Shown piece by piece: positions 31,991 through 34,996 of a stretch of DNA of 64,000 nt. The notes under the pieces were generated by a model. It worked only from the letters and a program-made list of their open reading frames with translations, was not told the origin of the DNA and ran no database searches. The translations under genes were made by a program, and so were the position numbers. Each line of letters starts with the position of its first letter. The first letter of the stretch is position 1. The DNA is taken from assembly GCF_057098645.1 (NCBI RefSeq), contig NZ_CM169472.1; one strand, 5' to 3'.

Positions 31991-33331
31991 TTAACTCAAC
32001 AGCTGGAACGCAATCATCCCAACGATGGCACCGACAGTGCCGAGGATGGTTTCCATCATGGTCCAGGTTTTCAGCGTTTCGGCTTCGGTCGCGCCGGTAA
32101 ATTTACCGAACAACCAGAAACCAGCGTCGTTAACGTGGCTGACAACAATCGAACCACCGGCGATACAAATCGACAGCGCCGCCATTTGCGCACCGGAGTA
32201 GTTCAGTTGTTCAATGACTGGCATCACCAGTCCCACCGCCGTTAAACAGGCAACGGTGGCAGAACCCTGAATGATGCGCACTGCAGCGGCCAGCACGAAG
32301 CAGGTGATAGCAATCGGCAGGCCCATGCCGGTTAACGCTTCGCCCAGTGCCGGACCTACGCCAGAGTCAACCAGCACCTGTTTGAACACGCCGCCCGCAC
32401 CAATCACCAGCAGAATGATCCCCGCCGGTTGCAGCGCGTGACCGCAAATCTCCATCACTTTGTCTTTTGGCATGCCCTGACGCATTGCCAGGCCATAAAT
32501 CGCTACCAGACAAGCAACCAGAATTGCGGTAAACGGATGACCAATAAACTCGAACCATTCGTAAGCGGTAGAGCCTTCTGGCACAAAACGCGCGGCAATG
32601 GTTTTCAGCCCCACCAGCACCAGCGGCAGCAGGATCAGCGACAGGCTGAATCCGAAGGACGGCATTTTGCCTTCGCCGAGATGCGGCTCGCTGATGTCGT
32701 CAGGAATATGCAACTCCACGTAGCGGCTGATGAAGTTACCCCACAGCGGCCCGGCAATAATCATTCCCGGAATTGCCGCACACAGGCCAATCAGGATCAT
32801 CCAGCCAAAATCGGCGTTCATCTGCGATGCCAGCAGCATTGGCGCTGGCCCTGGCACCAGGAACGCCGCCGCTGCCGCCACGCCTGCGAATAATGGGATT
32901 ACCAGCTTCACCAGGTTCGTACCGGTGTGGCGCGCCATTGAGAAAGCAACGCTAATCAGCAGAACAATCGCCACTTCAAAGAACAGCGGTAGCGCACAGA
33001 CCAGCCCCGCAAGGCCGATGGCATAATGCGCGCGGCTGTGACCGAAGGATTTAAGCATTTTGACGGCAATCTGATCGACTGCGCCGGTTTCATGTAAGAT
33101 CTTGCCAAACATAGCTCCCAGGGCGACAACCACCGCCAGGAAGCCGAGGGTGCCTCCCATCCCTTTTTCCATCGTCGCTGCGATTTTATCGAGCGGCATA
33201 CCGGAAAAAAGGCCAGCCCCCATGGACACCACCATTAAAGCCAGGAAAGCGTGCATACGCGCCTTCATGACTAAAAACAGCAGCAGTAAAACAGACCCTA
33301 CTGCTGTTAAAACAAGCGTTAATGTAGTCAC
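31991..33331 (-). CDS. gntU: gluconate:H+ symporter (GntP family)
   Basis: 446 aa polytopic membrane ORF with GntU sequence. Confidence 0.9.
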   Translation of the reverse strand: MTTLTLVLTAVGSVLLLLFLVMKARMHAFLALMVVSMGAGLFSGMPLDKIAATMEKGMGGTLGFLAVVVALGAMFGKILHETGAVDQIAVKMLKSFGHSRAHYAIGLAGLVCALPLFFEVAIVLLISVAFSMARHTGTNLVKLVIPLFAGVAAAAAFLVPGPAPMLLASQMNADFGWMILIGLCAAIPGMIIAGPLWGNFISRYVELHIPDDISEPHLGEGKMPSFGFSLSLILLPLVLVGLKTIAARFVPEGSTAYEWFEFIGHPFTAILVACLVAIYGLAMRQGMPKDKVMEICGHALQPAGIILLVIGAGGVFKQVLVDSGVGPALGEALTGMGLPIAITCFVLAAAVRIIQGSATVACLTAVGLVMPVIEQLNYSGAQMAALSICIAGGSIVVSHVNDAGFWLFGKFTGATEAETLKTWTMMETILGTVGAIVGMIAFQLLS

Positions 33332-33334
33332 TAC

Positions 33335-33862
33335 TTATTTGCCTTTTTTAATAACCTCAATGGTGCTTGCCACAACACCTTCCAGCGGTTGATCGATATC
33401 CACCACCAGTACATCGGTTTCGTCCGCACCCGGCTCCTGCAGCGTTTCAAACTGCGTCACCAACATTTGGGTTTTAAAGAAATGGCCTTTGCGCGCTTTC
33501 AGGCGGCTTTCAATCACATCAAAATCGCCTTTCAGGTAGATGAAAGAGAGATTCGGATTACCTTCACGCAGCAAGTCGCGATAGTGTTTTTTCAATGCAG
33601 AACAGACGATCAGTGACACTTTATTAGTGCGCTGCATAGCAAACGCGGCGTCGTTCAGCGCCTGCAACCACGGTTTGCGATCATCGTCATTCAGCGGTTC
33701 GCCAGACGCCATTTTTTCGATATTGCGCCGTGGATGGAGGAAATCGCCATCAAGAAACGCGGCATGAAGTTGATGCGCCACTTCACTTGCGACCGCAGAT
33801 TTGCCGCTGCCCGATACGCCCATCAAGACGTAAATGTGGTGATCATGGTTAGTCGTGCTCAA
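33335..33862 (-). CDS. gntK: gluconokinase
   Basis: Product matches GntK from the STTNHDHHIYVLMGVSGSGKS P-loop onward; no in-frame ATG, so a TTG start at 33862 (GGGGG Shine-Dalgarno upstream) is inferred. Confidence 0.85.
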   Translation of the reverse strand: MSTTNHDHHIYVLMGVSGSGKSAVASEVAHQLHAAFLDGDFLHPRRNIEKMASGEPLNDDDRKPWLQALNDAAFAMQRTNKVSLIVCSALKKHYRDLLREGNPNLSFIYLKGDFDVIESRLKARKGHFFKTQMLVTQFETLQEPGADETDVLVVDIDQPLEGVVASTIEVIKKGK

Positions 33863-34000
33863 AGTGGTGCCCCCACAATACAAGAATTAAAAATGTTACG
33901 GGTAACTGTTATCGGTAACATTGTCCAGCCGGACATTATCAGAAGCAATATCCATCCGTGCCTTAAGTGTATAAGTGTGAGCTACTTCAAATTTGTGGGC

Positions 34001-34996
34001 TTAAATAGATCCGCCCGGTGACAAGGTGAAACCTAAATCTAACATTTTCGGTGTCACAGATTCGCCACGAATACGCGCCAGCAGGCGTTCAGCGCCAATA
34101 CTGCCCATCCGCTCACGCGGCGTCAGCACGCTCGCAAGTCGTGGCTCCATCACCTGACCAATGTCATGACCGTGGAAACCGGCAATCGCCATATCGTCAG
34201 GAACTTTTAACCCCAGACGCTGACATTCAAACGCCGCGCCGACCGCCAGGTCATCATTAGTACAGAACACGCCATCCAGCTGCGGATATTCTCGCCGCGC
34301 CTGGCGAATCAGTTCAATACCGGAAGAGTAAGAAGAAGATTGCTCAACCATCACGCTATACGGCACCAGGCCTGCATCCAGCATCGCCTGTTCGTATCCC
34401 TTCTGTTTGATGATAGTACGTTCGTCGAGACGTGCGCCGAGATAGGCAATGTGGCGATGGCCGCGAGCAATAATGGCGGCGGTCATCTGGCGTGCCGCTT
34501 CAAAGTTATCAAAACCGACGGCGATATCGAGGCACGGCGACTTGCTGTCCATCAGTTCCACCACGGGAATACCCGCCACTTCAATCATCTTTAAGGTGCG
34601 CGGCGTGTGGGTACGTTCGGTGAGGATAAGTCCGTCGATATTCCATGAGAGCATTGATTCGAGACGTTCTTGCTCCATTTCCGGTTTATAACCGTAGTGC
34701 GCCAGCATGGTCTGATAACCGTGCGCGTCGGTGACACTTTCGATTCCGCGTAATACTTCCGCGAAAACCTGGTTGGTGAGAGAAGGTAACAGGACGCCAA
34801 TCGCCCGGCTGGTGGCGTTAGAGAGGATATCGGGCGCACGATTGGGAATATAGCCCAGTTCATCAAGAGCCGCGGCAATCTTGCCGCGTAGAGCGACGGA
34901 AACCTGCTCCGGGTTGCGTAAAAAACGGCTGACCGTCATTTTGGTCACGCCTACACGGTCAGCCACATCCTGAAGTACGGGTCTTTTCTTTTTCAT
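34001..34996 (-). CDS. gntR: LacI-family gluconate repressor
   Basis: 331 aa ORF with N-terminal HTH (LQDVADRVGVTKMTVSRFL). Confidence 0.95.
   Translation of the reverse strand: MKKKRPVLQDVADRVGVTKMTVSRFLRNPEQVSVALRGKIAAALDELGYIPNRAPDILSNATSRAIGVLLPSLTNQVFAEVLRGIESVTDAHGYQTMLAHYGYKPEMEQERLESMLSWNIDGLILTERTHTPRTLKMIEVAGIPVVELMDSKSPCLDIAVGFDNFEAARQMTAAIIARGHRHIAYLGARLDERTIIKQKGYEQAMLDAGLVPYSVMVEQSSSYSSGIELIRQARREYPQLDGVFCTNDDLAVGAAFECQRLGLKVPDDMAIAGFHGHDIGQVMEPRLASVLTPRERMGSIGAERLLARIRGESVTPKMLDLGFTLSPGGSI

Follow-up and report, generated by a model that had tools for sequence, protein, structure and literature searches.

The gluconate genes analyzed in this study lie within a stretch of 64,000 nucleotides (NCBI RefSeq assembly GCF_057098645.1, contig NZ_CM169472.1), which as a whole is referred to as the window. 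Three genes follow one another on the minus strand, namely gntR (34001-34996), gntK (33335-33862), and gntU (31991-33331). With gntR upstream and gntU downstream of gntK on one and the same strand, these genes represent the gntRKU locus of the GntI system, and the RefSeq gene names agree with this context. gntK encodes the thermoresistant gluconokinase of the GntI gluconate system, an enzyme that was reportedly purified and characterized in the 1990s.

All elements of the gntK start region described here are on the minus strand. The candidate initiation codon is the TTG at 33862..33860. It is followed by AGC ACG ACT AAC CAT GAT CAC CAC, encoding S T T N H D H H, and then in frame by ATT TAC GTC TTG ATG GGC. 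A Shine-Dalgarno-like GGGGG run is located at 33874..33870 and is separated from the TTG by the 7-nt spacer CACCACT. Further upstream, the frame is closed by a TAA at 33889..33887, and the codons from this stop down to the TTG are TTC TTG TAT TGT GGG GGC ACC ACT. By direct reading, neither an ATG nor a GTG is present in frame between the stop and the TTG. An earlier interpretation of the window, made from the letters and their open reading frames (the sequence-only reading), had placed a TTG at 33862 directly before the serine of GntK, a GGGGG run 7-11 nt upstream of it, and no in-frame ATG up to the next upstream stop. The coordinates on the minus strand, the spacer, and the eight intervening codons bear out these three observations. 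The span 33335-33883 assigned to the gene in that reading was correct only as an open reading frame. Its upper bound is a second in-frame TTG (33883..33881), so the span is a mechanical ORF of 182 codons and not the gene, and the real coding sequence covers 33335..33862 with 175 codons and the terminating TAA at 33337..33335. The first in-frame ATG of gntK is codon 14 (Met14; 33823..33821), directly before the P-loop sequence GVSGSGKS.

This extent of the coding sequence is supported by a protein structure entry, a profile, and the RefSeq annotation. Translated from the TTG at 33862, GntK comprises 175 amino acids, and all of them (residues 1-175; 100% identity) agree with the E. coli gluconate kinase sequence in PDB entry 1KNQ as well as in the entries 1KO1, 1KO4, 1KO5, 1KO8, and 1KOF. 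The NCBIfam gluconokinase equivalog NF008583 was matched with 373.6 bits (cutoff 265), whereby protein residues 1-174 aligned to profile positions 1-174 of 177. TIGR01313, which represents kinases of the GntK/IdnK type, was matched with 241.7 bits (cutoff 113.75) by residues 11-173. For the IdnK equivalog NF007336, a score of 184.1 bits was obtained, which is under its cutoff of 304. The Pfam matches of GntK were to generic P-loop kinase families only, and the Walker A P-loop GVSGSGKS (motif GxxGxGKS/T) occupies residues 15-22.

A comparison with the gntK starts of other E. coli, suggested as a check in the sequence-only reading, showed that the TTG is shared. A 751-nt query from the locus found matches in 5424 of 5426 complete E. 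coli genomes with identities of 96.5-100%. The gntR-gntK-gntU junction was unmatched in two of the 5426 genomes, and a few genomes carry two copies of the locus (5427 places in 5424 records). In six out of six RefSeq genomes inspected, among them one with an exact match, one derived from K-12, and the one with the most divergent match (96.5% identity), RefSeq/PGAP annotates gntK as a 528-nt CDS starting at this TTG. A 52-mer consisting of the Shine-Dalgarno-like run, the TTG, and ten codons was present exactly in 5388 of 5423 complete E. coli genomes; the other 35 genomes were scored as non-exact. A 63-mer centred on the TTG was exact in 4940 E. coli genomes, while the same 63-mer carrying ATG or GTG instead had no exact match in the E. 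coli genome collection. With 484 non-exact 63-mers versus 35 non-exact 52-mers, about 450 genomes differ within the 11 nt upstream of the 52-mer. In all three non-identical genomes sampled, an A>T exchange was found at 33887, which converts the upstream stop TAA to TAT. The closing TAA is thus polymorphic, and in the three inspected genomes carrying TAT the RefSeq start of gntK is still the TTG.

These population data bear on the other option raised in the sequence-only reading, a start-codon mutation lowering gntK expression. According to this explanation, the TTG would result from a strain-specific or recent ATG-to-TTG change or from a sequencing error. A lowered expression would be consistent with the generally weaker initiation at UUG, which reached 10-100% of the AUG level in reporter assays (10.1101/063800). 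However, TTG is the standard RefSeq start of gntK, and the near-invariance of the 52-mer together with the missing ATG and GTG versions identifies TTG as the species-wide state and not as a lesion of one strain.

For a comparison beyond E. coli, species-representative genomes were scanned with a DNA pattern back-translated from VLMGVSGSGKS, resulting in at least 120 loci. Also, tblastn was performed with GntR, GntK, and GntU of the window, and about 25 Enterobacterales loci were present among the matches listed, most of them with the full gntR-gntK-gntU order; Salmonella and Klebsiella pneumoniae lie outside the sampled loci. TTG was found at the homologous codon in at least 13 loci, representing 12 Enterobacteriaceae species and one unclassified MAG. 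They comprise a second E. coli, E. albertii, Superficieibacter electus, Leclercia adecarboxylata, two Enterobacter spp., two Citrobacter spp., Pseudocitrobacter faecalis, Pluralibacter gergoviae, Enterobacteriaceae bacterium RIT691, and the MAG. All TTG-bearing loci exhibit gntR-gntK-gntU synteny or have at least gntR upstream, and in the relatives the TTG is followed by AGC ACx ACx AAY. At least 11 more distant Enterobacterales carry ATG at the same aligned codon, namely Mangrovibacter, Klebsiella sp. BIGb0407, Erwinia endophytica, E. psidii, Edwardsiella hoshinae, Moellerella, Rosenbergiella, Xenorhabdus, two Photorhabdus, and Providencia. The gntK genes of Erwinia, Edwardsiella, Photorhabdus, Xenorhabdus, and Providencia resemble that of E. 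coli in start position, Shine-Dalgarno distance, and gntR-gntK-gntU synteny, but differ from it by the ATG start and often by a stronger AGGAG Shine-Dalgarno sequence.

In six loci of the TTG clade (Leclercia, both Citrobacter, Enterobacter BIGb0383, Pseudocitrobacter, and Pluralibacter; five species, with Citrobacter represented by two genomes), no other in-frame ATG, GTG, or TTG is present between the upstream stop and the TTG. Therefore, in these loci the TTG is the sole possible start that keeps the conserved N-terminus. As either ATG or TTG is found at one aligned codon, the place of initiation has stayed the same throughout the order, with a difference in the codon itself on a deep branch. 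This pattern would fit a single old first-base change, with either codon as the ancestral state, and not a recent lesion. In so far as the distant Enterobacterales carry ATG, the codon must have changed once on some deep branch, and to this extent a mutation did take place. A recent mutation or a sequencing error in the present strain, however, has next to no probability with TTG being common to E. albertii, Citrobacter, Enterobacter, Leclercia, Pluralibacter, Pseudocitrobacter, and Superficieibacter. Nearly all of the 5,423 E. coli genomes with this region have TTG as the wild-type codon, as do 12 further loci from related taxa, and the proposed start-codon mutation lowering expression was discarded as a strain-specific event.

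The signals for initiation were evaluated for all three in-frame candidates, i.e. the TTG at 33862, the upstream TTG at 33883, and the ATG of Met14. For the 20 nt upstream of the TTG at 33862, a duplex energy of −8.4 kcal/mol with the 3′ end of the 16S rRNA was calculated, a value equalled by about 9% of random 20-mers taken from the minus strand of the window. The pairing involves GGGGG against CCUCC with a central G-U pair. In contrast, the upstream TTG (+0.5 kcal/mol) and the ATG of Met14 (−1.0 kcal/mol) are without Shine-Dalgarno complementarity. In all 12 aligned species, the place of the Shine-Dalgarno sequence is taken by a G-rich or GGAG block. The 80-nt initiation region has a minimum free energy of −8.1 kcal/mol compared with a mean of −13.0 kcal/mol for dinucleotide shuffles (z = +1.84), and 197 of 200 shuffles are more strongly structured. 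According to these folding predictions, the structure around the TTG would be weak, as expected of a real ribosome-binding site. In the centroid structure, a 4-bp GUGG/CCAC hairpin covers part of the Shine-Dalgarno sequence; it was rejected as a regulatory element, being unconserved and broken in E. albertii.

An alignment of the start region from 12 species was used to determine where coding begins. Column counts were made on the ten sequences of the TTG clade, with 57 columns on each side of the TTG. Downstream of the TTG, 2, 2, and 14 of 19 columns were variable at first, second, and third codon positions, respectively. Upstream, the corresponding numbers were 14, 14, and 14 of 19, i.e. there is no codon periodicity. 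Also, the spacer between the start and an upstream palindrome (see below) varies between 17 and 40 nt with all three classes modulo 3 represented, so that length changes that are not multiples of three occur in this region. As periodicity is restricted to the part downstream of the TTG at 33862, purifying selection on the reading frame begins there and not further upstream.

This result decides on an initiation at the upstream TTG (33883..33881), which would add the extension MYCGGTT and yield a protein of 182 amino acids. This codon is the first start-type codon past the in-frame stop, where the mechanical ORF begins, and an in-frame TTG seven codons upstream of the start is also present in E. 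albertii, Enterobacter sp. Bisph1, and the second E. coli. It is absent, however, from the six TTG-clade loci named above. It is located just 10 nt downstream of the operator-like palindrome, and the NF008583 profile starts at the residue encoded by the TTG at 33862. Upstream variation is aperiodic and length changes break the frame; with selection on the frame starting at the TTG at 33862, the upstream codon is ruled out as a start site, and we regard initiation there as very improbable.

A start at Met14, with residues 1-13 lying outside the protein, would make use of the sole in-frame ATG near the 5′ end of gntK. Codons 2-13 are conserved, however, with variation mostly at third positions, and TIGR01313 already begins at residue 11, so that a start at Met14 would cut the strand leading to the P-loop. 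These two observations rule out Met14. Moreover, relatives using ATG have it where E. coli has the TTG and not at Met14, and the chance of this shorter protein is minimal.

We assign a probability of about 0.95 to the reading that the TTG at 33862..33860 is the native and evolutionarily conserved initiation codon of gntK, judging from sequence comparisons. The main claim of the sequence-only reading, a gntK start at this TTG, thereby holds in the annotation, the sequence of the structure entries, the E. coli population, the cross-species codon comparison, and the Shine-Dalgarno and periodicity analyses. One and the same predicted start may underlie both the PDB and the RefSeq sequence, so that these two are perhaps not fully independent of each other; the comparisons between species and the codon periodicity do not depend on annotation. 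In the proposed mechanism, the anti-Shine-Dalgarno sequence of the 30S subunit would pair with the GGGGG 7 nt upstream of the TTG in a poorly structured region. fMet-tRNA would then decode UUG as a near-cognate start codon, resulting in the 175-aa GntK with the N-terminus Met-Ser-Thr-Thr-Asn. The same codon position would serve as start throughout the Enterobacterales, with TTG in the group of Escherichia, Citrobacter, Enterobacter, Leclercia, and Pluralibacter and ATG in the more distant genera sampled.

Together with AUG and GUG, UUG belongs to the canonical start codons of bacteria, and it is read by fMet-tRNA. UUG starts are annotated for about 3% of the E. coli genes (10.1101/063800), and therefore a TTG in front of a conserved N-terminus is no statistical anomaly. 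For K-12, 81 UUG starts were previously annotated (PMC4909307). As expected from general knowledge on start codons, initiation of gntK from UUG is probably somewhat below the AUG level. The TTG start of gntK is already annotated and known; it is an ordinary UUG start, and the genome analyzed here has no gntK defect. The 175-aa gene model starting at the TTG is the correct one, and the mechanical ORF of 182 codons should not be used. The significance of this result beyond annotation hygiene is small.

The protein of E. coli K-12 (WP_000108330.1; 1KNQ) is identical over its 175 amino acids to that encoded in the window, and the K-12-derived genome shares the TTG, the Shine-Dalgarno-like run, and the gntR-gntK-gntU order. 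The start region itself shows no difference, while the 751-nt region is 98.9% identical, i.e. about 1% of the positions differ, and two differences are present in an aligned 174-nt stretch of gntR-gntK. Other UUG-initiated E. coli genes such as ftsH and cdsA (PMC4909307, PMC11448367) are comparable to gntK, as an ordinary gene is started at a near-cognate UUG preceded by a Shine-Dalgarno sequence. For several other genes with UUG starts, the start was tested by reporter fusions or complementation, whereas that of gntK is known here from sequence. The supplements of TetRP, INRI-seq, and TRAINSPOTTER contain no gntK entry, and a full-text literature search for the gntK start of E. coli found nothing. 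gntK is probably not expressed in cells without gluconate.

Two further elements were found between gntR and gntK on the minus strand. The first is a 29-bp double palindrome, ATGTTACCGATAACAGTTACCCGTAACAT (33893..33921), in the leader/promoter region of gntK. It is nearly invariant in 11 of the 12 aligned species, whereas length and composition vary freely in the stretch that separates it from the Shine-Dalgarno sequence. This double palindrome is GntR-operator-like and may represent tandem GntR operators in the leader of gntK. The second element, AAATTTGAAGTAGCTCACACTT (33973..33994), is located just downstream of the gntR stop codon, resembles a CRP site by direct reading, and fits TGTGA-N6-TCACA in 9 of 10 positions. 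gntK is among the known cAMP-CRP targets (PMC3105977). In the interval from gntR to gntK, a simple scan of the strand carrying gntK gave no sigma-70 promoter match, which fits a CRP-dependent promoter with weak hexamers.

The downstream gene gntU also has a non-ATG start. According to the ORF list and the RefSeq gntU CDS, it starts with a GTG at 33331..33329 (minus strand), 3 nt past the gntK stop codon. At the cross-species junctions, GTG was found as gntU start in the clade with TTG in gntK and in Mangrovibacter, TTG in Leclercia, and ATG, in contrast to the GTG of E. coli, in Erwinia, Edwardsiella, Xenorhabdus, and Photorhabdus. With GTG in gntU alongside TTG in gntK, both cistrons of gntKU have non-ATG starts in one lineage. 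One could speculate that the two codons arose together in the Escherichia/Citrobacter/Enterobacter lineage and are actively maintained, and thus are non-neutral, in order to cap or tune the translation of the GntI kinase and transporter, e.g. by IF3-dependent discrimination or for limiting 6-phosphogluconate overflow upon induction. We consider this scenario, including the suggested routes, improbable. All 13 TTG-clade loci among the matches listed share the T of the TTG, and so do at least 99.3% of the E. coli genomes. Purifying selection on this T was nevertheless rejected as unproven, because 5 of 19 third codon positions are equally invariant in the same alignment. The fixed start position of gntK with either ATG or TTG and the largely parallel ATG/GTG distribution in gntU could provide a small natural test of start-codon selection.

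Within the first codons of gntU, a terminator-like hairpin of 11 pairs with a 4-nt loop, followed by a T-rich tail, is located at 33281-33306 on the minus strand. It may represent an internal attenuator between gntK and gntU, with one terminator-like site being close to the expectation from shuffled sequences (mean 1.5).
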